DNA from: Chiloscyllium plagiosum
Taxonomy: Eukaryota
Assembly: GCF_004010195.1 (NCBI RefSeq)
Contig: NC_057717.1
Coordinates: forward strand, 63,279,168-63,343,167
DNA: 64,000 nucleotides
Reading direction: 5' to 3'
Shown: positions 2,764 to 64,000 of the stretch, one piece after another
Layout of the letters: every line of letters begins with the position of its first letter
Position numbering within the stretch: the stretch's first letter is position 1
Notes under the pieces: generated by a model
What the model was told of the DNA's origin: nothing
What the model saw: the letters and a program-made list of their open reading frames with translations, nothing else
Databases searched by the model: none
Translations under genes and position numbers: made by a program

Positions 2764-3618
2764 TCGCCAGAGATTGAGATGCAGATTTACATGAAGGGCA
2801 GGGAGGTGTCCGGGATGGTAAAGGTTAACTTGAGTTTGAGATGGAACGTGTTGGTGCAGTTGATGAACTGCAAAACCTCTCGTGGGAATACGAATTGGCG
2901 CCGATAAATTCATCAAAGTAGCGGCAAGAAAGGTGGGGAATGTTGCTCGTGTAACTGTGAAGTTTCCCCGCAGCATTCTGCACAAAACATACTGTCTGGA
3001 ACTGGAATTCCTTAGAAAATACTCTAAAATTCTTTGTACATTCTACACCCGACATTAGTTGGGAACGGCCGGACGTCAGTGAATTGAAAGAAATGATCAG
3101 ATACCAAGTGAAGAGGCCCAGTTGCAGGGTGAGGGAGACACTGTTACGGAGTCCCCATAGGCAGTTAAAATGGTGAATACATTTTCCCTCCGTTTACACT
3201 TGTTCAGTTAGCATGATCGATCATAATTGAGTCTAAATGTCAGAAATTTCCAAACTCCATTTGTCTTCAAGGAACTGGGAGAGAAACCTTCACGAAAGCA
3301 AGGTTTCACCCTCCGTGTTAGAATATGAAAAAAAAAAATGATCTGGTCTGCTCTCCAACGACCGAGTATGTGGGAGTTTCCTCGAAATCATCTGTTCCTT
3401 TGGATGTGTCTCTGTATGTTTGGGGAGGGAATGTTTCTTGTGGTTTATGTTACATTTCTGTCAGGAATTCAGATTTTCACATTTGTCATTTCAGCTCCAA
3501 CTGTTTTACTAAATCCCAGAGTACAGTGACACATTTGAAAATCTCTATCTGTCCTCAATCAAACAAGTCACTTTTCCTCCATGTTGATGTACAATGTGTT
3601 TTTTTACCTTCCTCACAG

Positions 3619-3745
3619 CTAACGTAGTGACGACCTACGTCCTGCTTTATAAAGATTGTGGATTGGCTGCATGTGTCAGACGTTATCTGGGGGCCATGGC
3701 AGTGGCGGATCTACTGGTCATTATCCTCGACCTGATATTGAGACA
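3619..3745 (+). CDS. Partial coding exon of a GPR139/GPR142-like class A GPCR (end of TM1, ICL1, TM2); continues into N-gap
   Basis: Polypyrimidine tract plus acceptor TTTTTACCTTCCTCACAG|CT (phase 1), then an open frame ANVVTTYVLLYKDCGLAACVRRYLGAMAVADLLVIILDLILR. N1.50 and the YLxAMAxADLL (D2.50) motif match the GPR139-like family expanded in cartilaginous fishes. Exon 1 was not located; the remainder is hidden by the gap or absent. Confidence 0.85.
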
Positions 3746-11385: not shown

Positions 11386-11900
11386 TTGTGGATCATTTCA
11401 GAGCACGTATTTGGGACACCCGCACCAACCTAGACCCGTGGGTGAAAATTTCAAAACCCTCTCCCAATCCACCCAGGATATGCAGGTCTGGGTCTTCCTC
11501 CGTCACCAAACCCGAACCACCCGATGACTGGAGAAAGAACGTCTCAACTTCAATTATTAGATCAAGAAATCCCACAGGATTAATGTGAATTTCACGAGTT
11601 TCCTCATTTCCCCTCCCCCAGCATTATCCGAGTCTCAAGTCTCCAACTCGGCACCGCCCTCTTGACAAGTCTATCGCCTTTCCCATCTATCCACTCTATT
11701 ATATTTTCTAAACTATCAACTACTCCCTCAGATCCATCTTCATATCGAATTCGCAGCTACCTTGCCCCCAGCCCCAGCACTCCTCCCATTTCTTTCTCGA
11801 CCACGCCCCCAAACGACATTAGTGGTAAAGGGTTTATGCCAGAAATATCGATTTTCCAGCTCGTATGATTCTACCTGACGGGCTGTGTTTTCAGACCACT
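11386..11900 (+). mobile_element. Penelope-like element 3' remnant (longer than its duplicate in arm A)
   Basis: GATCATTTCAGAGCACGTATTTGGGACACCCGC (decayed RF.EH motif), then GIY-YIG C-terminal and pLTR sequence. Confidence 0.65.
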
Positions 11901-14126
11901 GGTCAGGAAACAGTCTGACACTGCCATACTCACAGAATCATGCCTGATGGGTAATATTGAATGAAGCTGCATCACCATCCCTGGTTATATGCTGTCCCGC
12001 GGGCAGGGCACACCCACCAGTGGTGGGAAAATCCTCGGGGATAATGTCAGGAAAGGAGTTACCCTGCAATTCACCAACATTGATTTCAGAACCCAGGAAA
12101 TCTCATGGTAACAGGTCCAGAAATTCTCCTGATGGTCGGCATCTTCTGATTTCCATACCACCCCTTGGTAATAACTCAATTCCTCAGAGGAAGCACTGAA
12201 GGTGACAAGGAAATAGAACACACTCAGGGTGTGGGACTTCAATGTCCATTAGAAAGCGTGTCTCCACAGATCCACCACGGACTGAGCGGACAGAAGCCTC
12301 TCATACGCAGCAGCCAGTCTGTGGGAAGTGATGGGGGAAACGACAAGAAGGAAGCATTCTCAACATACACCTTGACACAGATGGATCTGTCTCTGACAAC
12401 GTCTGTAGGAATTCCGAGCAGACAGTTCGGATGGAGAGAATGTCTCAGTCTCATTCTGAAGATATTGCCCACTCTGCTATGTGGCACTACCTCCTGTGAA
12501 GTAGGACATTCTTCTGAAAGTCTAAGCAAATATAAACTGGGTATCCATCAGTTAATTTAGTTCATCAGCAGCTGCAGCATCAATGCAGTTCCCTCCATCA
12601 AAAGGTCAGAAGTAGGCTGTTCACTGATTGTTCCAAAAACTTCAGCAACATTCATTACTGCGCAAAAACTGAAGCAGTCTATTTAGCACATCAAGTGTTT
12701 TACATGGGAACGAAATGAGACCATTCAGCCATTCGAGCCTTTTACTCAGCAATTGGAACAGATCTTTTAACTCTCATGGCTGTTACACTGTGAATGAAAG
12801 GGAATATTCAGCATTCCAAAGTAGCTACATATGAATGGGGTATTACAGGTCATTGAGCCAGAAATAGGAATAATATAGGGATAAATCGTTTATTATTATT
12901 TTAACACAAATCAATGACTGCAATGGCAGAGTGACCAATGCTGGGCAACAACTATTTGCAAACGATATCAAAGATTTTGATATATGCAAAAGATGTATTC
13001 TAACTAAGATAGTTAGAAACTGAAGTTATCAAAAAGTGGTCGAGGCACTCTGATTGTATAAGCAAAGGACAACAATTTGGCAGCTGGAAAATAACATGTT
13101 TAAACGTGAATCTTTGAACTTTTCAGTAAGAATGAAATGCAGTATGCTACTGAAAGAGAAAGAGATGACAGGACTCAGCGACACAGTGATTACTGCAGGG
13201 TTCACTCTGAACAGTTCAGACATGGGAAGTGTTATTCCATCTCCCTGATAGTCTTCTCCCTGACATTTCCAGTGGTCGCATTGCTCTCATTCCACACTGA
13301 ACATTTTCATGTGGTTTCTTGGCGGTGTGAAGTAGTGAGGGGGAGCATGTTTTGAACTATGTACCAAGGGGAAAGCCTTTAGCCTCGAGGACATCTTTTC
13401 TTTCTACGTGAAGACACAAAGTCGATGGGAATTGCTGACTGCTTCTGAATAAAGAGACTGTGGCTGCTGCCATAAACAGTGTGAATTCACAAACATGATG
13501 TACTGTCCATGGGTACACTGCAACATTAATAGATTGAGAGACGGAGGTTCCAAACACAAGAAGGAGAACATAAATAAAACGCAGTGTCAGATCAACTTAA
13601 GTGGTTAGTCATATCAAGAGGGCCTATCTAGTCAGGGCACAGTACTGCTTAGATGAAGCTATGCTCGGTTCAACCCCAGCAGTGCATTGATCTATAAATC
13701 CGGAAGGGATGTCTGTCCAACATCGGGAGCTATGCCGTGAATTAATCTAAAAAAACTCTCCAGCAAGGGGAGCTATGCTGACCACAGCAGTACGATTGCA
13801 TCCAGGCCACTCTGAGTGAAGCACTTTGGAAGAGGTTGAGATGAAGGTAATATCAATTTATCTATCTTTCAATGTGTTTTGATGCACTTTTCCAAATTGC
13901 AGTGAGAATGGATGAAAAAGTCCTGAAATAAAGCCGATGGCAGCATACAGGACAGTAATGGTCATGTTCATCTCCCTCTGTTCATATTTCAGGGACAGCA
14001 TTGCAAGGAATCGGACAAAACTGCTCTGAGTCTCCAAGTTATATGTGGAAGAACGAAAGTGCGTGAAATATGATGCGTGAAACATGAAAGGAAACAGCGT
14101 GAAATATGAAGGATAGCGGCAGGGCA
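11451..14126 (-). repeat. Arm B of inverted segmental duplication (partner 1-2763)
   Basis: Reverse-complement match to 1-2763, including the same repeat-repeat junctions. By eye roughly 85-90% identical with small indels. Confidence 0.93.
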
Positions 14127-21090: not shown

Positions 21091-21629
21091 CCCTGTCTGG
21101 TTCCTTCTTCCAAAGTGCATCACCTCATATTTATCAGGGTTACATTCCATTGCCATTCATCTGTCCATCTGACCATTCCGACTATATCTTCCTGTAACAC
21201 AAGACTTTCCTCCTCGCTGTCAAACATGCACTTACTAATGACACTCCTCCAATCTCACGCCTGCATCATTTATGAAATCCGTTAATAATAAGGGACACAG
21301 CACTGATTCCTGTGGTAAACCACTGGACACTGGTCTCCAGTTACACAAACATCATTCTGCCACCTCCCTCTGTCTCCTTCCATTTAAGACAATTTTGGAT
21401 ATAACTTACCAAGATACCACTGATAACATGAAATTTTCCTTATTTTTTCAGTTTTTCATGTGGGGCTTTGTCAAACGTTGCTGAGAAACCCATTAAATGA
21501 ATTCCTTGAAAATTTTCAACACAATTTCTTAAGGCATCTCTTCGCTCTGATAAAGCCATGCTGACTATCCCTGATCAAACATCGCCTTTCAAATGGAGAT
21601 CAATTTTCTCCCTACCTATTTACTCTCTC

Positions 21630-21796
21630 ACTATAAATGCCGGAGGAAACATCACAGAAGCGCTTCACAGGAGGCTGCCAAGCACTGGGGATGTCACCTA
21701 GACAGGGGACGAAACGGCTGCAGCACAAATTCCCAGCTCGGCGAACAGAACCACTACAACGAGCACCCGAGCTACAAATCTTCTCTCAACTTTGAA
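21630..21796 (+). mobile_element. Solo Penelope pseudo-LTR
   Basis: Near-identical to the 3' ends of the Penelope copies at 40250-40393 and 52700-52868 (CACTATAAATGCCGGAGG...CTACAAATCTTCTC..AACTTTGAA). Confidence 0.9.
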
Positions 21797-22254
21797 TATT
21801 CTTCCATGTGGAGATGGCGCTTGTGTGGAAATATCACTGGACGACACAAGGCTAATGCTCTGGAGGTTGTTGGAAGTTAAAAACAATTAATAAAACATCG
21901 CGATCTAAGATCTTGTATCGGTAATCGTAACTTTGAAGCCAATGTCGATTGTTCGCACCAAAGGCCATACCCAGTGTGATGTCAGGATGTAGTACTACAT
22001 TGTTTTCTTGATCTTGTCTGAAAGTGACTCCAGACACACAGACATGTGATAAACTCTTCAATGGTCTCTGAGCAAGGCACTCAATTGTATCAAACTGCTC
22101 CGAGTTCTGAAATGATTAAACCTGTTAGAACACACATCACCAGCTTCTGTATCAGAAGAGAGAACGTGAAACACCGTCATGTTGATCCTGCAGAGCTTTT
22201 CTTCTGAACATCCGAGAGCTTGTGACAACACTTACAGAGCTATCCAACGGACTG

Positions 22255-27870: not shown

Positions 27871-30460
27871 TACTGAAATTCATGGTGATGGATGAGACTC
27901 CCAGCTTTTTTGAAGTATATTGAGTTGGGAATTTCCTGCGAGAGAATTGGAAAGTAGGGTGATTTATTGAGTGTTACACTTGGAGAATGGTACTGAGGCC
28001 CACAGAGACCACGAAAATCCCAGTCTCTGCCTTGGCCTCTGATACCTCATCTCTCTGGAGCAGAAAATCCTGTTCACCCAGGAGTAGCTGAAAAAGATGA
28101 AGGCAGAGGCAATTGGACACACATGGAGAGGGATACCACATGAAGATATACCGAGTGACATCACCAGAGTTCAGGAAGGTATCAGGATCAAACAATGGTC
28201 ACGAAAAAGGTGGGTGGAATTGGGCCAGTACTCAGGGGTGAGTGAGCTATTAGTGGTCAGACGATGGCCTAGTGTTATTCACAAGACAGTGCAGCAAGCG
28301 AAATCCATTTGATAGATTAATATCTTTCAGGGTTGGAAATCTGTTATCAACAGCTGTCTAGCATGTATACCATCTAGAACAAAAGCAATGTGTGTGAGTC
28401 TCAGCTGATCTCTGAAATGGTCTAGCAAGCCACACATTTCAAGGTCAGCTCGGCCAAGAAACACTGAACAGCGAGAAACATCTACATCGCACATGTCAAA
28501 TAAACATAGCCCTGCTGGGACTAGTGTCTTGGCCAATCCCATTCATATGTTTATGAAAAGGTATTTAAACAGTCAGAGAAGACGCAGAAACATTCAGGTG
28601 AAAGGACCTTTCGAAATTCAGAGGAAAAGTGAAGTATCTGAAAAGCATTGGAGATATGGCTAAAGACAAAGTGGAAGGAACAGGAATGGACAGAGTTTGA
28701 ACTAAAACTGTACATCACCTAATAGGTTAGTTAGAGGAAATGCTGAGAACATGTAAATTATATATTTTTTTCGGAAAGGACAAATTACCTGAAATAAGTT
28801 AGATGGACAGATGTGGTAGAAGAGTGAAAAACCTGTAAAACATAAATATCCAATAGCATACAACAGTCCCGAGGCGCAGGCTGAATGGGAATGCAGATTG
28901 TGTAATACTGACAAAGGCATGACAAAAGAAAACAATTGGCCTCAGATTATTCAGTTGAATCCGCCTGCACTCTAGGTGCAACTTGTCGAAAGCACTGGCA
29001 GGAGAATGGATTTTCTGCTGCCGAGCAACATTTAGTTACTCATCACGGCATTAAACACGAATTATTAGAATTCGTAACAAATGCATGAGAACAGTTTGGG
29101 AGACGTCAATCTTTCTACATTCTGGGACAGACACACTTACAAACTGAAGTGTGGAGAATGCTTTTTGGCATATTTCTTTGAATACCAAATAGTGCAAGTC
29201 GTTATGAACATAACTCTCTCAGATCGATGAGGAGATAAAAGTGAGGGCATGAGAGACACCACACTGAGCGATCCTCAGGGAAATTGTAATATAGTCGCTG
29301 TTAATCATATAAAAGCCGATTACGTGAGTTTGAGTGGAGATCTAACTAAGCTAAACAGGGTAAACAGACTGAAATGTGCTGCTGGAAGTGAACGGTGGAA
29401 AACATTCGAAGGAACTGTGTAAAATATTCAACAGAAAGGTAAAAGGTAAAATATTTGGAAGACATTCCCAGCTGTGCTTCACTTAGGATGGAAAGGATCA
29501 GATTTAATTAAGAATGCTTCGAAGACAAGAAAACAACTAACAGTTCTGAAGAATCCAACATTTCAGAAATAGGGAAATATTTGTTAAAGGGATCCCAAGG
29601 AGTCACCTAGGATTAGGAGAGCAGTGAGAATCGGAATCATTGTCAGAGCTTAATGGGAAGATAAGTGTAGTGAGGGTTCAGGGTGATGCAGGTGTTCAGA
29701 ATATTAAAGAGAGTGGCAAGGTTCTGAAGAATGTTACAGGGGCAGTATGTATTTCTGCAGCTGGAGGAGTTTGCACTGGTAGCGATGGAAGTATGCGTTT
29801 TAATTTATGCATTCATGGTCTGAGGATGTAACTGGTTGGACCAGCATATATTGCCACTGCTAATTTCACGGAGGTCTTTCAGAATCTGCCAGATTGCTGT
29901 GGGTCTGGGGTAACATGTGATCCACAGCAGGTAAGAATGCTGTGTCCTTCACTAAAGGACATAAATGAACCAGCTGAGTCTTTGTTTACCCATATAATTA
30001 ACAACTATTTTATCGACCTGTCCCCGATGTCTTGCACAGCCACAGCATGACATCCCAACACCTATTCTCAATGGTCTGACAATGAAGGCAAGCGACCAAA
30101 GCACCTGCTTCACTAGACTGTCTACCTGTAACACAAAATTCAAATAACTGTGTCGTTGCATCCCTAGGTCTTTCTGTTTGATAATACTACCCAGACCACG
30201 AACATTAATTAAACAAGTCCCGCGCTGGTTTGTATTCGCAAAATGCAACGTCGTGGAGATCTCCACCTGCTGTACCTCAACACTGGATCCGCAATATTAC
30301 TGATCCCGTTGTACTCGTAGATAATCCACTTCACTGTCCACGTTACCACCAATTTCAATGTCACTCGTAAAATTGCTATAACTCCTGTTCTCTCATACAA
30401 ATCGTTTATGTAAACGATGCACAACAGTGGACCCAACACCGAACTTCATTGCTCACTGTT

Positions 30461-31955
30461 GTGGTTCTGTTCGCCGAGCTGGAAGTTTTTGTTGCAAACG
30501 TTTCGTCCCTGGCTAGGCGACATCATCAGTGCTTGGGAGCCTCCTGCGAAGCGCTTCTTTGATGTTTCCTCCGGTGTTTATGGTGGTCTGTCCCTGCCGC
30601 TTCCGTTCTACAAAAAAACGGACAGATAACCAGAGCTGACCTACAAAGAATGAAACCGGAAAGCAACAACACCCCCAGATTCTATGGATTACCTAAAGTA
30701 CACAAACCAGACATCTCATCAGACCCATAGTATCACTACCAGGGACATCATCATACAAACTGGCCAAAGAACTACAACAGAAACTGAAACACCTGGTCAG
30801 CGAATCCAAACACTCTATACAACCAACACAGGAATTCTTGGACATCATCAGAAATATACACATAGACAAAGAAGAAACCATGATATCATTCGACGTGAAG
30901 GCACTGTTCACTTCGATTGACAAAACCCTAGCCAGAGAAACAATAGCCAACCTACTGGACAGTCAGAACAGAAAACAGGACGCTGAACCTATCAACAAAG
31001 AAGGCATACTTAAACTACTGGACTTGTGCCTCACAACACACTTCACATTCAACAACCAGATATACGAACAAATCAACAGAACACCCATGGGATCACCAAT
31101 CTCGGGACTCATAGCAGAGGCAGGTATGCAAAGGTTAGAACAAACAGTCCTACCACAAATTCAACCCAAACTCTGGGCCAGATANNNNNNNNNNNNNNNN
31201 NNNNNNNNNNNNNNNNNNNNNNNNNNNNNNNNNNNNNNNNNNNNNNNNNNNNNNNNNNNNNNNNNNNNNNNNNNNNNNNNNNNNNNNNNNNNNNNNNNNN
31301 NNNNNNNNNNNNNNNNNNNNNNNNNNNNNNNNNNNNNNNNNNNNNNNNNNNNNNNNNNNNNNNNNNNNNNNNNNNNNNNNNNNNNNNNNNNNNNNNNNNN
31401 NNNNNNNNNNNNNNNNNNNNNNNNNNNNNNNNNNNNNNNNNNNNNNNNNNNNNNNNNNNNNNNNNNNNNNNNNNNNNNNNNNNNNNNNNNNNNNNNNNNN
31501 NNNNNNNNNNNNNNNNNNNNNNNNNNNNNNNNNNNNNNNNNNNNNNNNNNNNNNNNNNNNNNNNNNNNNNNNNNNNNNNNNNNNNNNNNNNNNNNNNNNN
31601 NNNNNNNNNNNNNNNNNNNNNNNNNNNNNNNNNNNNNNNNNNNNNNNNNNNNNNNNNNNNNNNNNNNNNNNNNNNNNNNNNNNNNNNNNNNNNNNNNNNN
31701 NNNNNNNNNNNNNNNNNNNNNNNNNNNNNNNNNNNNNNNNNNNNNNNNNNNNNNGACAGCTGAAACTGACAACCCGAAGCGGCAGGGACAGACCACTATA
31801 AACACCGGAGGAAACATCAAAGAAGCGCTTCGCAGGAGGCTCCCAAGCACTGATGATGTCGCCTAGCCAGGGGACGAAACGTTTGCAACAAAAACTTCCA
31901 GCTCGGCGAACCACAACAACGAGCACCCGAGCTACAAATCTTCGCACAAACTTTG
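30461..31955 (+). mobile_element. Young 5'-truncated Penelope-like element with inverted 5' pLTR and a 16-bp TSD
   Basis: RT ORF 30838-31184: MISFDVKALFTSID...CLTTHFTFNNQIYEQINRTPMGSPISGLIAE. 3' pLTR at 31755-31955, inverted pLTR copy at 30461-30606. TTCATTGCTCACTGTT is duplicated at 30445-30460 and 31956-31971. Confidence 0.95.
31847..31886 (+). ncRNA. Minimal type I hammerhead ribozyme motif in Penelope pLTR (copies at 30494-30532 minus, 40302-40341, 52754-52793)
   Basis: GCA-CTGATGA-T-GTC(G)CCT AGCC AGG(G)GAC-GAAAC-GTT-TGC: CUGANGA and GAAA cores, stem II, palindromic ACGU helix III and a GCA/UGC helix I. Confidence 0.75.
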
Positions 31956-37914: not shown

Positions 37915-38330
37915 AGAACTCCCGAGACTCGAGTCTCCCTGCCGAACATCAAAGACATCTCGGAGATGACGACCAGGTTACTCCGGCCCAAGGCATCATC
38001 GCAGCCCGAAAACTTACCACGACATTTAAACAGCTCTTGATGACTTTAAATGACTGCGTACCCACAACCAGTAGATTGAATGTCATGTACAAAATGTCTT
38101 ACAACGACTGCAACAAATATGACATTGGACAACCGGGCATTAAACTAGCCACCAGGATATATGAGCATAAACTAGCCACCCAAATACACGATCAGCTATA
38201 ACCGTCATCATGCACAAACGATGAGGGACATCAGTTCGACGAGGACAATACTTCCAGCCTGTGAAAGACGAAACAAACACACTCACGAGAACTCCTGTCA
38301 TTCCAAGCAGAACTCCATCAGTAAAGGCAT
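37915..38330 (+). mobile_element. Older Penelope GIY-YIG fragment
   Basis: NVMYKMSYNDCNKYDIGQPGIKLATRIYEH (37911..38201). Confidence 0.82.
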
Positions 38331-38534
38331 CCACATGGTGGAAGAGCCCAGCACAACAATAGGAAACTAAGGCTGAAACGTTCACAAAATGGTTCAGACA
38401 GAAGTGTCGAAGGGATGATCTATTTTAGTCTCCTCCAGATGACAGTTTTCAACTAACTTGATTCAGTTCGTGTGGTAGCTGTAAGCAGGCTGCAGGGACT
38501 GGATAATGCAAAGGCTGTGGGCCCTAATAACATT

Positions 38535-40393
38535 AGGGTTAAAAACCTCTCCCACAGACAGCTCACAGACACGGAAAGAACAATACTGGCCAAGGGAGTC
38601 AACTACAACCACAGGGACGCCAAGACAGCAGACTTCCTAGCAGCACTAGAATGCACTCAGGAACAATGGACTGACAGAAGAGACACAACAAACAGTGAGN
38701 NNNNNNNNNNNNNNNNNNNNNNNNNNNNNNNNNNNNNNNNNNNNNNNNNNNNNNNNNNNNNNNNNNNNNNNNNNNNNNNNNNNNNNNNNNNNNNNNNNNN
38801 NNNNNNNNNNNNNNNNNNNNNNNNNNNNNNNNNNNNNNNNNNNNNNNNNNNNNNNNNNNNNNNNNNNNNNNNNNNNNNNNNNNNNNNNNNNNNNNNNNNN
38901 NNNNNNNNNNNNNNNNNNNNNNNNNNNNNNNNNNNNNNNNNNNNNNNNNNNNNNNNNNNNNNNNNNNNNNNNNNNNNNNNNNNNNNNNNNNNNNNNNNNN
39001 NNNNNNNNNNNNNNNNNNNNNNNNNNNNNNNNNNNNNNNNNNNNNNNNNNNNNNNNNNNNNNNNNNNNNNNNNNNNNNNNNNNNNNNNNNNNNNNNNNNN
39101 NNNNNNNNNNNNNNNNNNNNNNNNNNNNNNNNNNNNNNNNNNNNNNNNNNNNNNNNNNNNNNNNNNNNNNNNNNNNNNNNNNNNNNNNNNNNNNNNNNNN
39201 NNNNNNNNNNNNNNNNNNNNNNNNNNNNNNNNNNNNNNNNNNNNNNNNNNNNNNNNNNNNNNNNNNNNNNNNNNNNNNNNNNNNNNNNNNNNNNNNNNNN
39301 NNNNNNNNNNNNNNNNNNNNNNNNNNNNNNNNNNNNNNNNNNNNNNNNNNNNNNNNNNNNNNNNNNNNNNNNNNNNNNNNNNNNNNNNNNNNNNNNNNNN
39401 NNNNNNNNNNNNNNNNNNNNNNNNNNNNNNNNNNNNNNNNNNNNNNNNNNNNNNNNNNNNNNNNNNNNNNNNNNNNNNNNNNNNNNNNNNNNNNNNNNNN
39501 NNNNNNNNNNNNNNNNNNNNNNNNNNNNNNNNNNNNNNNNNNNNNNNNNNNNNNNNNNNNNNNNNNNNNNNNNNNNNNNNNNNNNNNNNNNNNNNNNNNN
39601 NNNNNNNNNNNNNNNNNNNNNNNNNNNNNNNNNNNNNNNNNNNNNNNNNNNNNNNNNNNNNNNNNNNNNNNNNNNNNNNNNGCAAAAAACGGATATCCTC
39701 GCAATTTCATCAACAGATGCCTAAGGGAAAGACAATGGAACGAGGACATGCCGCAACCCAAAGGACTAGCCACACTACCATACATCAAGAACATCTCTGA
39801 AATGACAGCCAGACTACTGCGACCACTAGGACTTATAACAGCACACAAACCAACAGCCACTCTCAGACAACAACTCACCAGAACGATGGACCCGATACCC
39901 AGCATGAGCAAAACTAATGTAGTGTACAAAATCCCATGCAAGGACTGCACAAAACACGACGCAGGACAAACAGGAAGACAGCTAACGATCCGCATCCACG
40001 AACATCAACGAGCCACGAAACGACACAACCAGCTATCCCCAGTAGCCACACACGCAGACGACAAGCAACATGACTTTGACTGGAACAACACTACCATTAT
40101 AGGGCAAGCGAAACAAAGAACAGCCAGGGAATTCCTAGAAGCATGGCACTCATCCACAAACTCCATCAACAAACATCGACCTGGACCCAATATAGCGGCC
40201 ACTACAGCGGACAGCTGAAACTGACAACCGGAAGCGGCAGGGACAGGCCACTATAAATGCCGGAGGAAACACCACAGAAGCGCTTCACAGGAGGCTCCGA
40301 AACACTGAGGATGTCACCTGGACAGGGGACGAAACGTTTGCAACAAAAACTTCCAGCTCGGCGAACAGAACCATAATAACGAGCACCCAAGCT
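38535..40393 (+). mobile_element. Young Penelope-like element (RT mostly in gap; GIY-YIG domain and pLTR visible)
   Basis: VKNLSHRQLTDTERTILAKGVNY before the gap; NGYPRNFI...LPYIKNISE...NVVYKIPCKDCTKHDAGQTGRQLTIRIHEH...REFLEAWH after it; pLTR ends AAATCTTCTCACAAACTTT. Confidence 0.93.
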
Positions 40394-40702
40394 ACAAATC
40401 TTCTCACAAACTTTCAACATGACATTCAACCAGTTCCTACCGAGATATAACACTGGCATCGACCTGACAATGTGGGAAACTATCGAGCGTGTCCTGTATA
40501 TGCACAGACTCACTGACTACCCCATTGATCTCACAACTATCATGAATATTATGATGAAAAATGTCATCAGCAGTGGTGTCAATCAGCACTTCCTCAGCAC
40601 CAATGTTTCTATGAAGTACAGTTTGTGATTAACCAGGGCAGTCATCCCCTGGCCTCATTGAAAACTTGGTCTAAACATGGACAACAAGAAAACACACAGC
40701 TG

Positions 40703-42482
40703 AAATCTGGGACCTGCAACAGCCAATCCTGTCCCTGTTCTACCCATGTCTCCGTAATAGCCACAACATCGAAGTCCCAGGTACCAACCCACGCTGCAAG
40801 TTCACCTACCTTATTTCGTACACTTCTTGCATTGAAGTATACACACTTCAACCAACTTTTCTGTTTACCGGTATCCTCCTTTGAAATTGATGCCATGTTC
40901 CTAACTTCCCAACACTCCAGGTCCTGCACCCTAAAGCTTCAGTCTGGGTCCCCATGCCCCTGCAGAGTTAGTTTAAAACCNNNNNNNNNNNNNNNNNNNN
41001 NNNNNNNNNNNNNNNNNNNNNNNNNNNNNNNNNNNNNNNNNNNNNNNNNNNNNNNNNNNNNNNNNNNNNNNNNNNNNNNNNNNNNNNNNNNNNNNNNNNN
41101 NNNNNNNNNNNNNNNNNNNNNNNNNNNNNNNNNNNNNNNNNNNNNNNNNNNNNNNNNNNNNNNNNNNNNNNNNNNNNNNNNNNNNNNNNNNNNNNNNNNN
41201 NNNNNNNNNNNNNNNNNNNNNNNNNNNNNNNNNNNNNNNNNNNNNNNNNNNNNNNNNNNNNNNNNNNNNNNNNNNNNNNNNNNNNNNNNNNNNNNNNNNN
41301 NNNNNNNNNNNNNNNNNNNNNNNNNNNNNNNNNNNNNNNNNNNNNNNNNNNNNNNNNNNNNNNNNNNNNNNNNNNNNNNNNNNNNNNNNNNNNNNNNNNN
41401 NNNNNNNNNNNNNNNNNNNNNNNNNNNNNNNNNNNNNNNNNNNNNNNNNNNNNNNNNNNNNNNNNNNNNNNNNNNNNNNNNNNNNNNNNNNNNNNNNNNN
41501 NNNNNNNNNNNNNNNNNNNNNNNNNNNNNNNNNNNNNNNNNNNNNNNNNNNNNNNNNNNNNNNNNNNNNNNNNNNNNNNNNNNNNNNNNNNNNNNNNNGG
41601 TCTTCGTCACTTCCCCCTGCTGCTCCCGCTCTTTCTTTCTGTAAAGAGAGAAAAAAACACCGCTTCCCGCTACCGGTAAGTAATTTTAAAACAAACTGTC
41701 TTAACTTAGCTGCTGCTCGCACTTAAAGTGACCGTTGGCGTCGAAGGGTGAGTATTTGTACTCACTGCTTTCCTTCCCGGCTGCCCCTCCGGTCTTCGTC
41801 ACTTCCCCCTGCTGCTCCCGCTCTTTCTTTCTGTAAAGAGAGAAAAAAACACCGCTTCCCGCTACCGGTAAGTAATTTTAAAACAAACTGTCTTACCTTA
41901 GCTGCTGCTCGCACTCAAAGTGACCGTTGGCGTCGAAGGGTGAGTATTTATAGTCACTGCTTTCCCTCCCGGCGGCCCCTCTGGTCTTCGTCACTTCCCC
42001 CTGCTGCACCCGCTCTTTCTGTGAAGAGAAAAAAAAGCACCGCTGCCCGCTACCGGTAAGTAATTTTAAAACAAACTGTCTTACCTTAGCTGCTGCTCGC
42101 ACTCAAAGTGACCGTTGGCGTCGAAGGGTGAGCATTTATACTCAATCCTTTCCTTCCCGGCGTACCCTCTGGTCTTCGTCACTTCCCCCTGCTGCTCCCG
42201 CTCTTTCTGTGAAGAGAAAAAAAGCACCGCTGCCCGCTACCGGTAAGTAATTTTAAAACAAACTGTCTTACCTTAGCTGTTGCTCGCACTCAAAGTGACC
42301 GTTGGCGTCGAAGGGTGAATATTTACACTCACTGCTTTCCTTCCTGGCGGCCCCTCTGATCTTCGTCACTTCCCCCTGCTGCTCCCGCTCTTTCTGTGAA
42401 GAGAAAAAAAACACCGCTGCCCGCTACCGGTAAGTAATGTTAAAAAAAACTGCCTTACCTTAGCTGCTGCTCGCACTCAAAG
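40703..42482 (-). mobile_element. 5' portion of a young CR1 LINE: tandem 5'-UTR array, (gap), ORF1 stop, start of the ORF2 APE endonuclease; no 3' end
   Basis: LKCVYFNARSVRNKVGELAAWVGTWDFDVVAITETW (APE N-terminal NAR and ITETW motifs). TTAAACTAA (..LN*), typical of the CR1 ORF1 end, lies at ~40968-40976. The link to the array crosses a gap but is supported by continuity of the host element. Confidence 0.8.
41599..42482 (-). promoter_or_regulatory. Tandem array of 187-192 bp CpG-rich monomers (~4.7 visible), putative CR1 5' promoter monomers
   Basis: Unit starts at 41599, 41791, 41983, 42171 and 42358. On the minus strand the monomers carry GGAAGTGACG, a TATAAATA consensus, TCACTTT (Inr-like) and a GTAAG...TACTTAC...(Y)nACAG mini-intron. 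Confidence 0.7.
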
Positions 42483-42859
42483 AGTGGCTGCACTTAACGT
42501 TAACATAACTGTTCTTTATCAAATGTGGCATCATGAATTAATTGCAAAATTGGAGCAAATGAGAATCAGAGAAACTTCTGTACTGGTTGAAGTTATACCT
42601 GGTTCAAAGGAAGATGGTTGAGAGCAGCTATCTCTGCTCCACTACAGCGCTGCAGCGATTACCCAGGGAAAGTGTTTCTGGGTATGCCTGTAGATCAGAA
42701 AAGGAAAGGTAAGACTCCATAATCTGAAGAGATGATGTGGTTACGCTCTTGTTAGAAAGAGCGAATCGGTAGTAGTTTAACTGGACAGTGAGTGTGCTAC
42801 ACAGAACGGAGTAGCTGAGTGAAGCAATACTGTGCAGGACAGGACAAACAGTCAGTGCA

Positions 42860-43066
42860 GGAATTGAACCAACAGTGTTGGCATGAATCTGCATTATAAA
42901 CTAGCCATCTAACTGATTGAGCTAACGACGTCCTGACTCAACTCCTTAGGGATGATATTTTAATATTAATCTGTTCAGATGTGTTGTTACACACCTCTGG
43001 AGTAGGTGGAAGTCGAAGCAAGTTTCCTAGCTGAGAAAGAGTGTCATTATCAGTGAGTTCCAAGAG
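42860..43066 (-). mobile_element. Degenerate tRNA-derived SINE head(s)
   Basis: Minus strand GTTAGCTCAATCAGTTAGATGG...GGTTCAATTCCTGCAC (A and B boxes) and a second decayed head at ~42975-43066. Confidence 0.5.
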
Positions 43067-45861
43067 TGATGTCTGTTCTCGATCGAACAATCTTCACCTG
43101 CATAATGAATAACTATTTCTCCACCGCAAAATCACAAGTGGGAGTGTTTTCCAATGATTTCATAATATTCAACCTCATACGTGATTACTCAGATATGCAA
43201 AATATGCAGGCGCATGCTTAAAAGCGACAAGTCACCTTATCCTTACACACATGCCAGACAACTATCACCTCTAACAATAAATTCAATGCTATCGCGTCAA
43301 CAGAATTCCGAAGGACCAATATACTGGATATTACTGTTAACTAGAACTGGATGAATCAAATAAATTCATTATCCGTTCCAGTGAGGGGCTTATGCTGAAA
43401 CGTTTTGACTCTCTGTACCTCAGTTGTTGTCTGACATCCTGTGGTATTCCGGAACCACACTTGCCAACCGAAATAAATTCATTGTCTTTAAGAGTATGTC
43501 AGAGGCTATGAATCCAGTAAAAATAAATTTCCTCAAGATTTCTGAAAGCCTATCCGCCATCGTTTCGACACACGTTGAAAATGCATGTGATTAGATATAA
43601 ACCATGTATCAATTTGAGTGCAGCATTACTCCTGATCGACGGACAGTCACTCGCAACAATGCCTGCCATCTACATAGTACTCTGCAGAAATTTACCGAAG
43701 CCTCTTACAAAGTACCCCTGAAAAACCACCATCAAGAAGGACAAGGGCAGCAGATACATGGGAGCACCAGAACGGTCACCTACCAAGCCACCCACCATCC
43801 TGATTGGGACATATATTGCTGTTCCTCAGTGTCACTGTTTCAAGTTCCCTCCCTAATGGTATTGTAAACGTACCTACAGTGCTTGGGTTGTCAGGGTGTA
43901 TTGTGGCAGCTTACTACCACCTCCGCAAGGGCAACATGGGAGGGCAATAAATACTGGCTCAATCACATCCCATGAATAAATTAGAATGAAAACTATTGTC
44001 CAATTAATGCCCAAAATTGGGCACTGAGTTTTGGTTTTGTGAGCGCACGCTGGTTGGGCACAGCCAGTGCCTTGGTTGCTGTGAACAGCTCAAAGGATTT
44101 GCTGTTTGAAACACATTGTCAGTCTTTCAAATGCATGGCCTACATACCTAACATCAGGTACACACTAACATTGACACATCACATTCCTGCGCTATGAGAA
44201 GGACAGAAGGAAATGATAATGTACCCATATGTCGCTGTAGAACGTTAGACAGTGATAAATTTGCCATGAAAATGATTGTGTGTGAATGTTAGCTCACAAT
44301 GTTATTACAAGGGAAAGTAATTGCGTCCTTACTCTTCATAATAATTTGCTCTTGGTTGTAGTAATGAGATGCATCATTACAAAGCCCCTTACTGTGATTT
44401 GTGCACTGCTTTCATCATATAGTTATCATAAAAGTGAAGAGAACAAATGGGTGGTTTTGTGCTTATCGGACAATTGAAAAGTCAATATTACCTTACGATG
44501 TCGAACCATCAATAATGCGACTTTGCTGTTAATGGTTTGACCAATGCTATAAATACCTACATAGAAATTTCTATCTTGAGTCACACACTTGGAAGTTGGT
44601 CTGGGATCATCCTGGTCATCAATTCTGTTTACACACTGCCATTGTGGAGCTGACATCCACTGAATACGATTTATGAGGGATTCAGTGCAAGACGCCATGC
44701 GTGTCAGAAGTCCATCATCTTTACAGCAATTTCATTTCGGATCGGGTCCAAGGTAGAGACTTACAGAGTTTCGGTGGCATACGAGAAGAGATAAACTTGC
44801 AAAACATGCTTCTGGTCAGGTGTTTTTTTACAAATGTTGAATTGTGTTTGGACCAGCACCAAGCACTGTGCTAGTCGATTGACCATGCATTTCCCTGTTG
44901 TTCAGGAATGTCCCTATTTGGTCTGTTGTGAGGGATTGTGTGGAAACTGGTCAGCTCCAGTGTGAAAGGACTCTGGATAGATTTTGGAACTGGCCAGTGT
45001 TTTGGAGGTAGTGGTGAAGCCCAGTAACACCGCGTCTGAATTCAGTCTTTTTAAAAGATATTTTCNNNNNNNNNNNNNNNNNNNNNNNNNNNNNNNNNNN
45101 NNNNNNNNNNNNNNNNNNNNNNNNNNNNNNNNNNNNNNNNNNNNNNNNNNNNNNNNNNNNNNNNNNNNNNNNNNNNNNNNNNNNNNNNNNNNNNNNNNNN
45201 NNNNNNNNNNNNNNNNNNNNNNNNNNNNNNNNNNNNNNNNNNNNNNNNNNNNNNNNNNNNNNNNNNNNNNNNNNNNNNNNNNNNNNNNNNNNNNNNNNNN
45301 NNNNNNNNNNNNNNNNNNNNNNNNNNNNNNNNNNNNNNNNNNNNNNNNNNNNNNNNNNNNNNNNNNNNNNNNNNNNNNNNNNNNNNNNNNNNNNNNNNNN
45401 NNNNNNNNNNNNNNNNNNNNNNNNNNNNNNNNNNNNNNNNNNNNNNNNNNNNNNNNNNNNNNNNNNNNNNNNNNNNNNNNNNNNNNNNNNNNNNNNNNNN
45501 NNNNNNNNNNNNNNNNNNNNNNNNNNNNNNNNNNNNNNNNNNNNNNNNNNNNNNNNNNNNNNNNNAAGGCTGACGTGTTTTCACTGCAATAAAATAGGTC
45601 CAATAAGTGCACAGCGTTCGTGGTTCAGTAAAAGCACTGGGTAGAAGATATCAGAAAGTAGCATAAGACAGGGAATGTTGTTAAAATTGCAAAATGAATC
45701 ACAATGGATGCGAAACTTTTGCGCCAGAATGTACTACACCAGACAGACTATATTTGAGAAGAAAGTGGTAGTTCTTCATCAATTATTTATTTGCGAAAAT
45801 ATGATGTCCTCTCATAGAGTGGGAATAATACCACAAGAAGATTTAGTATTCAGAGATACGG

Positions 45862-46195
45862 GATCAGATCAATCCTTCATGTTGACGAATGAAGAGAATA
45901 TGTAACGCAGAAATACTAGTCCTGGAAAAAGTGCTAGCACGTGGAATTTATTGCGATCCGAGAAATGTTCCATATGCACAGTGAGTTAAAAGTGTGACGG
46001 GAGTTGTGGAGAAGTATTAATAGGAGTAGATCAGATCAATCCTTCATGTTGACGAATGAAGAGAATATGTAACGCAGAAATACTAGTCCTGGAAAAAGTG
46101 CTAGCACGTGGAATTTATTGCGATCCGAGAAATGTTCCATATGCACAGTGAGTTAAAAGTGTGACGGGAGTTGTGGAGAAGTATTAATAGGAGTA
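45862..46195 (+). repeat. Exact 167-bp tandem duplication (45862-46028 / 46029-46195)
   Basis: Both units read GATCAGATCAATCC...TATTAATAGGAGTA; no mismatch seen. Confidence 0.93.
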
Positions 46196-52117: not shown

Positions 52118-52868
52118 GCTTCTAGGAATTCTCTGGCTGTTCTTTGTTTGGCTTGCCCTATAATGGTAGTGTTGTCCCAGTCGAATTCATGTTGCTTGTC
52201 GTCTGCGTGTGTGGCTACTAGGGATAGCTGGTCGTGTTGTTTCATGGCTAGTTGATGTTCGTGGATGCGATGTTTAGCTGTCTTCCTGTTTGTCCTATAT
52301 AGTGTTTTGTGCAGTCCTTGCATGGGATTTTGTACACTACATTAGATTTGCTCATCCTGTGTATCGGGTCCTTCGTTCTGAAATCCCATGCAAGGACTGC
52401 ACAAAACACTATATAGGACAAACAGGAAGACAGCTAACGATCCGCATCCACGAACATCAACTAGCCACGAAACGACACGACCAGCTATCCCGCGTAGCCA
52501 CACACGCAGACGACAAGCAACATGAATTCGACTGGGACAACACGACCATTATAGGGCAAGCCAAACAAAGAACAGCCAGGGAATTCCTAGAAGCATGGCA
52601 CTCATCCACAAACTCCATCACTAAACACATCGACCTGGACCCAATATACCGGCCACTACAGGACAGCTGAAACTAACAACCGGAAGCGGCAGGGACAGGC
52701 CACTATAAATGCCGGATGACACACCACAGAAGCGCTTCACAGGAGGCTCCCAAGCACTGAGGACGTCACCTAGACAGGGGACGAAACGTTTGCAACAAAA
52801 ACTTCCAGCTCGGCGAACAGAATGACAGCAACGAGCACCTGAGTTACAAATCTTCTCACAAACTTTGA
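52118..52868 (+). mobile_element. Young Penelope insertion with an inverted GIY-YIG segment (52118-52378 minus, 52381-52868 plus with pLTR)
   Basis: IPCKDCTKHYIGQTGRQLTIRIHEH...REFLEAWHSS on the plus strand; the same region in reverse complement immediately upstream; pLTR ends AAATCTTCTCACAAACTTTG. Confidence 0.93.
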
Positions 52869-53681
52869 ACAACGTCCGAATCTGTGCTTTTATATGCAAA
52901 CTGCTTCATTTTATGCTGTGGTCCCTTTTGGTACGTTTTAGTAATAACACCTGGTCGGCATTACCTCTTCCTCTCAACAGATGCAAAACCAAATCGTTCG
53001 GTCTTGTGCTTTGGTCTTGCCAAGTTTACTTTAAATAATTTCATGGGTCCTCACCTTCATGTCAGAAAATTAACTCGAAGGGAGTAGGCTGAGTAGATTC
53101 ATTTGGTGCATCTGTAATGGGAAACATTACGAATTGAACATCTTCATCCTCATTATTCAGGTAATCCTGACAGTATGCTCTCAACATGGTCTTCAAGGTC
53201 TCATGCCAGCTTTCTAATGCTCTCTTGGATTAGGTATGATAGGTACTTGTATAAAATCCAAATCCATAGCTAGCCTTGCAGTAAAATTAGAACCTTGATT
53301 CAAATGAATCTCTCTGGGTAGCCCATAACACGTGAATAAAGTGACGAACTCCTCCACCGCTCATTTTGCCTTAATTCTCATAATTCAATTGACTCTTGAA
53401 GTCTGTTAGACAAAGCCATTATGTTAACGAAAACTGTTTCCCATTTTTATTTCTCGGCATATGTCCGACACAATCTTTCATAACCCGTGTGAAACGGTCT
53501 TCACGGGCCAGAATTGGTAACAAATGTTCTGGCTTTATTTCCGCCTGGAACGTACCGACCAGTTGGCATATATGAGACGTTTGTTGAAGGTTAACAACAT
53601 CCTCATGCAGTCCAGGCCAATAAAAATGTTTTTTTTTAACCGAAGCCTGAGTCTTTCACACAGCACAATGAACACACCAGT

Positions 53682-59018: not shown

Positions 59019-61045
59019 TGCCCACAGAATTTCACATGTGACATGTTTCAGTGGAGAGTTAGGAGTCTTCTTGCTTTTTCTTCTTTTATGAAGTTTCAAT
59101 ATTTATTCTTCTGATGTTTGAGGACTTGGCTTTACAGTGGAGGAACATGGAGCTGAATTTTTGTTCATGGCCCATGTTCAATGAAATTGAGCTGAGTGTG
59201 AAGTTGTTTTAATAATCGGGAGAGATATTTCTTGAATAAGATTACAACGAGTGGTAACACATGAATTTCCGGAAAGGAGGTGGATTGCAGACTTGCGAGC
59301 TGACAACGATACTTAACACATCGATAGATAGAAATCTTCATCCCTATGAGTTTCTGTATGGCTATCGATTGGACAAATACATTATATATTCCTTTCTGAT
59401 GTTCACACTATAATCGCTCCTATAAATGTCAACTCCCGATGCATGGATGCCAATTCTTTTATCGTCTACAACAGAATCTCTGTTTTTTTTAATGAACAGT
59501 GCATTCGCGGCATTTGGCTAATATGTATAAGCAGCAACCCATGCATAAAACGATGAGCAAAAATAAAAAAAAATGAATCTACCCAGTGGATTTCTCTCTG
59601 ATGCTCGAATTTATCTGGCGTGTTATAAGTTGAATTTAATAAATCCACTCAGGTTATAAGAAGGACAGAGCATGAGGCTCAGTCCATCAAAGAGTCATAG
59701 TAATTAAATAGCATGACACACATCTTTGGCTCAACATGGACATGCCGAGTGGATATTCTAAACTGACCTCCTCCCATTTGCCAGAATTTGGCCATATCTC
59801 TGTTAGCGCTTCCTATTCATGAAAATCATTCAGGACATTTTCAAATATTGGAATTGTAGCTGCGTCCAATCCTTCCCCAGGCAGTTCATTCTGTACGTGC
59901 ATCACCATGTCGGTGAAAACGTTACTTCTTTTCCATTTAGTTATTTCTCCTCTCACACTAGACGTATGCTGTCAGGTTTTCTACACTCTACAGTGTAAGA
60001 AGACCTGAGTTACTCACCCTTCCAATGATCCTCATGACTTTATAAATCCCTATAAGGTCACCCGTTATCCTGTTGTGCTTCAGCGAGCTTGGTACCTCGA
60101 AATTCAGCATTCCAAGCAATCTTTTCTGAACGTTCATGTTCAACGGCTTCCTTTCGATAGCAAAGAGATCAGAATCGCACACACTGTTTTAATGTGGCCG
60201 AACCAATGTCTTGCACACATGCAACATCCCAATCTTCAACTGAATGCCCTGCCAAATAAAAGCAGTGATGCAATTCACCTTCTGTAAGATTCTGTTAACC
60301 TACGACTGCACTTTCAAAGAACTATGAACCTGCAATTCAAGGTCTCTTTTTAGATTAACGCATCCCATTGCCTATCATTAAGTGTACAGAGAAAACTGTG
60401 GACTGAAGATGCTGAAGATCTGAGTCGAGAGTGTGATGATGGAAAAGCACATCAGGTAAGGCAGCATCCGAAGAGCAGGGGAATCGGGCAAATCCCTTGA
60501 TCTGGAAGTGTATATGTTTGGGTGATTGACTTTCCAAAAGCATTAACTTGCATGTAATTAATATACGCCCATATTTCCACTCCTCCACCCAATGGCAAAT
60601 CTGACTTAATGTACCGCTGTAATTAGAGATAAACGTCTTCACTGTAAACAACACCACGTATTTTGGTGTCATCTGCGAATGTACGAAGCATAGCTTAGAA
60701 GTGTTGATCAGGTTGGTAGGCCAATCGCAAATGGTTTTATCACTTGTTAACGCAATAAAGATTTTGCGAAATTTAATGAAAGGCAGGACGCTGGGAAGAA
60801 TGGAGGAATACAGTTATCTTCCTTGTGGCACTCCACTGGTCACAGGCCTCCAGTCGGAAAAGCAACCCTCCATCAACACCCTCCGTCTTCTACTCTTGAG
60901 CCAGTTCTGTATCCAAATGGCTAATTCTCCCTGTTATCCGTGAAATCTAACAATGCTAATCAGTTTCCCATGGGAAACCTAGTCGAATGCCTTACTGAAG
61001 CCCACATACATCACATCTACTGTTCTGCCATCATCACTCTTCTTT
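59019..61045 (+). repeat. Copy 1 of a ~2 kb high-identity direct duplication (copy 2 at 61985-64000)
   Basis: TGCCCACAGAATTTCACATGTG.. to ..CATCACTCTTCTTT occurs in both copies with scattered SNPs and small indels. Contains CR1 (-) fragments and a pLTR. Confidence 0.95.
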
Positions 61046-61984: not shown

Positions 61985-64000
61985 TGCCCACAGAATTTCA
62001 CATGTGACATGTTTCAGTGGAGAGTTAAAAGTCTTCTTACTTTTTCTTCTTTTATGAAGTTTCAATATTTATTCTTCTGATGTTTGAGGACTTGGCTTTA
62101 CAGTGGAGGAACATGGAGCTGAATTTTTGTTCATGGCCCATGTTCAATGAAATTGAGCTGAGTGTGAAGTTGTTTTAATAATCGGGAGAGATATTTCTTG
62201 AATAAGATTACAACGAGTGGTAACACATGAATTTCCGGAAAGGAGGTGGATTGCAGACTTGCGAGCTGACAACGATACTTTACACATCCACAGATAGAAA
62301 TCTTCATGCCTCTGAGTTTCTGTATGGCTATCGATTGGACAAATACATTATATTTTCCTTTCTGATGTTCACACTACAATCGCTCCTATAAATGTCAACA
62401 GTCGATGCATGGATGCCAATTCTTTTATCGTCTACAACAGAATTTCTGTTTTTTTTAATGAATAGTGCATTCGCAGCATTTGGCTAATATGTATAAGCAG
62501 CAACCCATGCATAAACGATGAGCAAAAATAAAAAAAATGAATCTACCAAGTGGATTTCTCTCTGATGCTCGAATTTATATGGCGTGTTATAAGTTGAATT
62601 TAATAAATCCACTCAGGTTAGCAGAAGGACAGAGCATGATACTCAGTCCATCAAAGAGTCATAGTAATTAAATAGCATGACACACATCTTTGGCTCAACA
62701 TGGACATGCCGAGTGGATATTCTAAACTGACCTCCTCCCATTTGCCAGAATTTGGCCATATCTCTGTTAGCGCTTCCTCTTCATGAAAATCATCCAGGAC
62801 ATATTCAGATATTGGAATTGTAGCTGCGTCCAATCCTTCCCCAGGCAGTTCATTCTGTATGTGCATCATCATGTCGGTGAAAACGTTACTTCTTTTCCAT
62901 TTAGTTATTTCTCCTCTCACACTAGACGTATGCAGTCAGGTTTTGTACACTCTACAGTGTAAGAAGACCTGAGTTACCATGATCCTCATGACTTTATAAA
63001 TCCCCATAAGGTCACCCGTTATCCTGTTGTGCTTCAGCGAGCTTGGTACCTCGAAATTCAGCATTCCAAGCAATCATTTCTGAACTTTCATGTTCAACGG
63101 TTTCCTTTCGATAGCAAAGAGATCAGAATCGCACACACTGTTTTAATGTGGCCGAACCAATGTCTTGCACGCATGCAACATCCCAATCTTCAACTGAATG
63201 CCCTGCCAAATAAAAGCAGTGATGCAATGCACCATCTGTAAGATTCTGTTAACCTACGACTGCACTTTCAAAGAACTATGAACCTGCAATTCAAGGTCTC
63301 TTTTTAGATTAACGCATCCCAGTCCCTCCCATTAAGTCTACAGAAAAAACTGTGGACTGAAGATGCTGAAGATCTGAGTCGAGAGTGTGATGATGGAAAA
63401 GCACATCAGGTCAGCCAGCATCCGAAGAGCAGGGGAATCGGGCAAATCCCTTGATCTGGAAGTGTATATGTTTGGGTGATTGACTTTCCAAAAGCATTAA
63501 CTTGCATGTAATTAAGATACGCCCATATTTCCACTCCTCCACCCAATGGCAAATCTGACTTCATGTACCGCTGTAATTAGAGATAAACGTCTTCACTGTA
63601 AACAACACCACGTATTTTGGTGTCAACTGCGAATGTACGAAGCATAGCTGAGAAGTGTTGATCAGGTTGGTAGGCCAATCACAAATGGTTTTATCGCTTG
63701 TTAATGCAATAAAGATTTTGCGGAATTTAATGAAAGGCAGGACGCTGGGAAGAATGGAGGAATACAGTTATCTTCCTTGTGGTTCTCCACTGGTCACAGG
63801 CCTCCAGTTGGAAAAAACAACCCTCCATCAACACCCTCCTTCTTCTACTCTCGAGCCAGTTCTGTATCCAAATGGCTAATTCTCCCTGTTTTCCGTGAAA
63901 TCTAACCACGCTAATCAGTTTCCCATGGGGAACCTAGTCGAATGCCTTACTGAAGCCCACATACATCACATCTACTGTTCTGCCATCATCACTCTTCTTT
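61985..64000 (+). repeat. Copy 2 of the direct duplication (runs off the window end)
   Basis: ORF pairs 60075..60287/63029..63241 and 60701..60943/63655..63879 are near-identical. Confidence 0.95.

Follow-up and report, generated by a model that had tools for sequence, protein, structure and literature searches.

A tandem array of TATA-bearing units, putative promoter monomers, at the likely 5′ end of a CR1 LINE in a shark

Transcription in the CR1 group of retrotransposons has been little studied. CR1-group elements constitute 22%–34% of shark and ray genomes (PMC13343379). Most of the characterized non-LTR 5′ UTRs hold internal promoters (PMC2881922). Monomers have been shown in mouse L1, as have 5′ ends in phase and the loss of 0.6–1.8 monomers per round, and the way in which units are restored is unclear (PMC10620060, PMC6454616, PMC5381506). 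In the CR1 group, some elements devoid of ORF1 present 1–5 subunits of 100–500 bp near the 5′ UTR, left uninterpreted in a 2026 paper (PMC13343379, legend of Fig. 4) whose main text contains none of the words "promoter", "monomer" or "tandem". Direct repeats are described in the 5′ UTR of chicken CR1-B (PMC2734521). In Penelope of Drosophila virilis, a 75-bp intron located 46 bp past the start is kept, though most transcripts are spliced (PMC2377424).

The locus described here belongs to a stretch of 64,000 nt of Chiloscyllium plagiosum (the window). At 41599..42482, on the minus strand, there are at least 4.7 tandem monomers of 187–192 bp, with the inner end of the array meeting an assembly gap. 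TRF finds a period of 187, 4.7 copies and 94% matches, and the pairwise identity among full units is 92.4%–95.2%. The observed/expected CpG ratio is 0.93 in the array vs. 0.53 in the whole window, and none of 60 further N-free tiles equal in length exceeds 0.79. The original prediction of a CpG-rich repeat in CpG-poor surroundings, with this copy number and unit length, holds. In consisting of tandem, CpG-rich and multicopy units, the array agrees with monomeric promoters of the mouse L1 type. A 4-nt duplication and nearby changes are common to the two inner units and absent from the three outer ones, a distribution that would fit a stepwise duplication of the array. No second copy of the monomer was found elsewhere in the 64-kb window. 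Pattern scans gave a single bacterial match in JGI metagenomes (L001, by chance) and 0 matches in viral and prokaryote collections, and the two weak Rfam matches on 38000–46000 are both below the gathering score and both outside the array.

A Penelope origin of the unit was rejected, the neighboring Penelope-like end (40210–40420) having no similarity to it. A common end of 170–210 bp, with 85%–94% identity, is present at five places of the window (38457–40420, 30697–31955, 52118–52871, 21629–21799 and 30450–30605), in elements that we take, from their translations, to be Penelope-like. The window contains also an inverted duplication of 2.8 kb with 87% identity (3–2763 vs. 11451–14124), a direct duplication of 2.0 kb with 96% identity that spans an assembly gap and may represent two haplotypes assembled in tandem (59019–61045 vs. 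61985–64000), and a two-copy repeat of 167 bp, 100% identical and likely an assembly artifact (45862–46195). A short reading frame at 3588–3745, with the end LGAMAVADLLVIILDLILR followed by a gap, resembles helix 2 of a G-protein-coupled receptor.

Three promoter-like motifs follow each other in the units. The sequence GGAAGTGACG (41989..41998, minus strand) is the same in all five units (also at 42373–42364, 42186–42177, 41806–41797 and 41614–41605); we label it a putative site with overlapping ETS and half-CRE motifs. The TATA box TATAAATA (41945..41952, minus strand) is exact in one unit, and the three others are one base off each, with TGTAAATA at 42327–42320, TATAAATG at 42140–42133 and TACAAATA at 41760–41753. 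The Inr-like TCACTTT (41917..41923, minus strand; other units at 42298–42292, 42111–42105 and 41731–41725) places the predicted +1 at 41921, with 31 nt from the first T of the TATA box (41952) to the A of the Inr. The coordinates in the unit with the exact box, the spacing and the single substitutions in the three other boxes had been reported beforehand and were re-found as such. A TATA box and an Inr separated by 29–33 nt occur in 0.22% of 5000 dinucleotide shuffles (one unit, either strand), for a pattern that was picked post hoc. The TATA box is the center of an imperfect 18-bp palindrome made of a donor-like GTGAGT on the sense strand, the TATA itself and an antisense ACTCAC. Since the ETS/CRE motif is at −77 from one Inr and at about +110 from the previous one, "upstream" and "internal" are, for this motif, indistinguishable from the sequence.

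Each unit contains, in addition, a pattern resembling a short intron. On the sense strand, the predicted start is followed after 25 nt by AAG/GTAAG and, 65–66 nt further, by CAG with a pyrimidine tract. The predicted introns are of 65 nt in units 1 (42394..42458, from AAG/GTAAG to a polypyrimidine CAG/) and 2 (42207..42271) and of 66 nt in units 3 (42019..42084), 4 (41831..41896, with a second possible acceptor 4 nt on) and 5 (41639..41704), all on the minus strand. The pattern is intact in 4/5 units; in the innermost unit 5, the donor GT is replaced by TT, and relatives have G at this donor position in 94%–100% of depth. Of 5000 shuffles, 0.06% produce a pattern of this sort, which was set post hoc. 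Some 20 nt inside the intron, the donor recurs as its reverse complement, which can be read as a candidate branch point, a donor for the other strand or a mask. Upon folding of one unit (z 0.33), no stability appears beyond that of shuffles, and a downstream CTTACC is the partner of the donor in the best structure; a structured-RNA reading of the unit is not supported by this value. In a single contig of depth 4.98 from X15, a run only guessed to be RNA, 41809 is joined to 41709 with 20 letters between, which corresponds to the removal of the predicted intron: 16 of the letters reach the acceptor and 4 fill up to the donor, two of these 4 differing from the window. This joint is absent from the contigs of X4 (organism A). 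The GT–AG pattern in the units and the 3′ break of the copy (see below) are additions to the original prediction.

On its inner side, the array is followed by 618 N (40981..41598), where the tether and most of ORF1 are expected. With about 1.1 kb needed for both (an estimate from lengths), this gap is too short unless it is underestimated or deleted. Beyond the gap, a CR1 fragment (40696..40980, minus strand) comprises the ORF1/ORF2 junction and the first ~70 endonuclease codons, with no 3′ part. It is 65% identical to residues 141–235 of P0001 and to residues 2–72 of P0002 (the latter at 40908–40696). P0002 is a protein of 942 aa with PF03372, PF14529 and PF00078, and it is through the alignment to it that the fragment has the N-terminal APE endonuclease of a canonical CR1 ORF2; in Pfam, the match of the fragment to Exo_endo_phos (E 0.002) is under the cut-off. 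Of ORF1, only the junction with ORF2, aligned to P0001, is visible in the window copy, the rest being inside the gap. The part of P0001 upstream of the aligned residues resembles, in our assessment, an esterase end; a locus search with P0001 found no locus. The fragment breaks inside the endonuclease at 40696–40716, and neither a tail nor a target-site duplication around the insert was seen. After the break, at ~40700, there is no RT domain and no CR1 3′ tail, so that the window copy is a 3′-broken fragment; internal priming or a later deletion are possible origins of the break. Lacking its 3′ end, the copy does not correspond to a simple TPRT product, and a deletion may thus account for its 5′ end. 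The window copy itself is dead.

At the outer side, the 5′ end of the insert is at 42480..42482 (minus strand), which in the outermost unit corresponds to Inr positions +2 to +4: the match to the unit ends at 42482 (+2), or at 42480 (+4) with two bases counted as flank. The position of this break stood as predicted. The resumption of an older host LINE at 42483 was not confirmed. The flank (42483..42700, plus strand) possibly holds the decayed RT of an older LINE, which its translations, as we read them, resemble. In searches for an RT in the flank, Pfam, local alignment within the window and a home-made RT profile gave nothing above controls, phmmer against 1.84 billion proteins gave 0 hits, and tblastn with P0002 gave E 0.81.

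The link between the array and CR1 5′ ends comes from the shark consensus sequences in the supplement of PMC13343379, compared over the first 400 nt of each. A block with donor, AT-rich stretch and CTTAC like that of the unit is seen by eye in 4/16 whale-shark CR1 rows (-2a, -7, -8 and -11), most of them with a GC-rich stretch and a pyrimidine tract after the block. Within the window, a 16-nt motif of RhiTyp_CR1-7 matches, with at most two mismatches, 3/4 full units and no other place, vs. 0.01 matches expected. In run X4, contigs with a loose end at 41762 continue with ATATAT-N9-GGCT-N-AACCCG, and the same pattern with equal spacing is found by eye in RhiTyp_CR1-2a and -7; in the supplement file, the exact 11-mer of this tether pattern occurs just in those two rows, and in RhiTyp_CR1-2a the ORF1 starts about 120 nt past it. 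What carries this tether match are the far 11 letters of a loose end of 30 letters (median length 19), reached by at most three of six contigs, from another organism label. The evidence for the order unit, tether, ORF1, indirect but specific, supports a CR1 5′ end, and we consider it very likely that the array is one. None of the tested motifs of the monomer was found in the first 400 nt of the PMC13343379 rows; as the rows are limited to this length, the array's family may stand further inside a consensus.

Tandem 5′ units are clear by eye in 5/23 catshark and 5/24 white-shark CR1 rows (first 400 nt), so that 5′ repeats are common in shark CR1. In several of the shark consensus sequences, these repeats range from ~26 to 150 bp, and many are without visible TATA. 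In ScyCan_CR1-6, the tandem unit is of ~150 nt and has AAATTACTTACC in common with the array unit, and ScyCan_CR1-19 contains the palindrome GTGAGT-TATA-ACTCAC. A palindrome with donor, TATA-like spacer and anti-donor recurs in RhiTyp -2a, -7 and -8, in ScyCan -6, -16 and -19, and in CarCar -14.

Sequences related to the array occur in public sequencing runs. Array words are partly present in 20 runs from 9 studies with 3 organism labels, with a best share of 0.34, and the runs are thus probably from relatives of the window's organism; no RNA run is listed as a certain carrier. Four runs were compared over 242 of the 884 array bases, with 504 matching records in X4 (organism A, kind of run not on record), 30 in X15 (organism B) and 122 in X17 (organism C); like X15, X17 is only guessed to be an RNA run. 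In X22, a raw single-cell RNA run of which 6% was read, 0 reads matched the array. Some single contigs have a depth in the thousands, which indicates a high-copy family, though depth is no copy number, and others are at 9–60. Tandem joints with a period of 183 are present in X4 and X15. Under three organism labels, the run contigs show a tandem family of high copy number whose TATA box is exact; among the run contigs examined, none joins a unit to ORF1.

At position 41758, the base of the relatives turns TACAAATA into TATAAATA in 34290.9/34442.8, 202.4/202.4 and 1172.8/1172.8 of depth, and the exact family box has 99.6%–100% of depth in the 3/3 runs with matching contigs. In one subfamily, the central two bases of the TATA box are inverted (AA>TT), a variant that the palindrome explains without selection. 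Two groups of loose ends, at 41762 in X4 (6 contigs) and at 41772 in X15 (1 contig), depart from the unit close to its TATA box; their continuations keep other TATA-like boxes (TATATA and TATAAAA), displaced by no more than 3 nt, and are without the arms of the palindrome. No substitution is listed in the relatives' contigs at 41797–41806, the GGAAGTGACG site. By hand count, ~5/40 motif positions are variable in relatives vs. 23/~146 others, so that the motifs are not clearly less variable, and the Inr changes that keep the consensus are expected from transitions.

The original prediction had suggested looking for a pile-up of copy 5′ ends at TCACTTT; several independent ends are there, and others are not. 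Four contigs of X17 whose flanks are unrelated (agreement 0.56 vs. 0.54 expected for unrelated sequence) end at 41727 (+3), as does X4 record 17, and the window copy ends at +2 to +4. These four, among 39 partly matching X17 contigs, give P 0.003 for a 3-base and P 0.019 for a 5-base preset window. The X17 loose consensus begins with two letters compatible with a variant common at +2 and with the A at +1, so that the true position of the ends may be +1. Of the flank-like upstream ends, 4/11 contigs are at the Inr and 7 elsewhere, among the 18 of 78 loose ends listed (with 24 of 661 pieces). Loose ends at 41698–41712 in organisms A–C belong to variant units with 25–30 extra first-exon bases that have a CCGGAAG core, presumably ETS-like, and bounding AGCTG repeats. 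One variant group (3 contigs, median 255 letters) has no donor and continues into other sequence, possibly a second tether.

The array probably represents spare promoters of a shark CR1, as in mouse LINE-1. Each unit would constitute a Pol II core promoter at the 5′ end of the element, with, in order, the ETS/CRE-like site, the TATA box at −31, the initiator, a first exon of 25 nt, an intron of 65 nt and a GC-rich exon, which in one unit would hold the promoter of the next. With a start at the initiator, the ETS site and the TATA box that fired would be left behind, and a daughter copy, beginning within a unit at about +1 to +3, would rely on a promoter further in, so that at least one unit would be lost per round unless regained by duplication. 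The last unit would exit the repeat at the TATA position into the tether and then ORF1. The intron would be spliceable, and the RNA copied would be mainly unspliced, because the genomic units keep the intron. We infer promoter activity, the start site and the loss per round; the tether link, the phased 5′ ends and splicing are supported by few contigs. The whole explanation (CR1 5′ end, one TATA promoter per unit, loss per round and copying of unspliced RNA) is favored with moderate confidence.

The monomers could instead be internal promoters of the mouse type in a CR1 5′ end, with the start set by a downstream factor (one bound to ETS/CRE at about +110, for example, or U1 bound to the donor at +25) and the TATA box a by-product of the palindrome of donor and anti-donor. 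The TATA box does sit within GTGAGT...ACTCAC, similar palindromes with variable spacers are present in ScyCan_CR1-19 and -6 and CarCar_CR1-14 (PMC13343379), the two halves of one unit are weakly alike (51/2000 shuffles reach the score), and mouse L1 starts cluster near YY1 sites. This reading is nevertheless unlikely in view of the 31 nt between TATA and Inr and of the two arm-less variant continuations, still with TATA-like boxes at the same place. If the units resulted from neutral tandem expansion in a CR1 5′ UTR, only one promoter would matter, unequal recombination would change the repeat number and the 5′ ends would be ordinary truncations. The many sizes of the tandem 5′ repeats in the catshark and white-shark rows agree with this, as do the 7/11 flank-like ends off the Inr among those listed, but four ends, one more record and the window copy are at a site named beforehand and CpG is kept at 0.93, which makes such an expansion quite improbable.

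The assembly invites the question of whether the array is a separate repeat (a satellite, a SINE or another element) beside a CR1 fragment, or is brought there by a scaffold mis-join across the gap. The gap is unclosed and short, continuity of the host LINE across the insert is not confirmed and no target-site duplication is seen; against this, the orientation fits CR1, and it is published CR1 5′ ends (PMC13343379), rather than a free satellite, that the motifs of the unit and the pattern of the tether match, which leaves this reading very improbable. A wider reading, speculative and on the whole doubtful, is that of a shark CR1 without internal promoter, in which the monomer would be the start of an ordinary TATA gene, captured together with the first exon and the first intron. 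The RNA would then be divided by splicing into a translated form and an unspliced form, the latter serving for copying, and the donor might be masked by the reverse complement of itself 20–30 nt downstream; introns would be kept as in Penelope, and generations would be counted down by the number of monomers.

Under the preferred explanation, with each unit a TATA promoter upstream of its start, the loss of one unit per round would be forced by geometry. The shark element would have arrived independently, and in its purest form, at the solution of mouse L1. With unit variants spread over thousands of copies, the way in which units come back, which is open in mouse (PMC6454616), could be put to the test. 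Were a spliceable intron kept in every unit, a trait of Penelope elements would be present in a LINE as well.

In the TRE5-A element of Dictyostelium, the A-module is tandemly repeated. Like the array unit, it is a 5′ module of 200 bp in a non-LTR element, of another clade, and it has promoter activity (PMC3159450). The SpIREs of human L1 have in common with the array splice sites within a LINE 5′ UTR, and their spliced RNAs can themselves be copied into the genome; in human L1, promoter sites are lost by splicing, with dead ends as the result, whereas the loss of one unit's intron here would leave ETS, TATA and Inr (PMC5860796). As in Penelope and HeT-A, the promoter would be supplied by an upstream repeat; Penelope belongs to another class of retroelements, its upstream repeat is the 3′ UTR of the neighboring copy, and its promoter is described as TATA-less (PMC2377424). 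The suggestion that monomer promoters in CR1 are new has to be narrowed, since monomer spending is shown in mouse L1 (PMC10620060) and 5′ repeats of the CR1 group are in print (PMC13343379); in the literature searched, mostly non-subscription and without Repbase/Dfam, no paper on TATA-driven or intron-bearing CR1 monomers was found. The shark consensus rows of the CR1 group show tandem units and related motifs, as does the array, and while the subunits of the figure legend are assigned to elements devoid of ORF1, the window element has an ORF1-type junction (PMC13343379). With mouse L1 (A, Tf and Gf), the array has in common CpG-rich tandem units of ~200 bp, here probably ahead of a tether and ORF1 as in the mouse (PMC10620060, PMC6454616, PMC5381506). 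It differs in that the shark element is a CR1 and that the unit has, as far as its letters tell, a TATA box at −31 with an Inr and a short intron pattern, whereas the mouse start is anchored by YY1.
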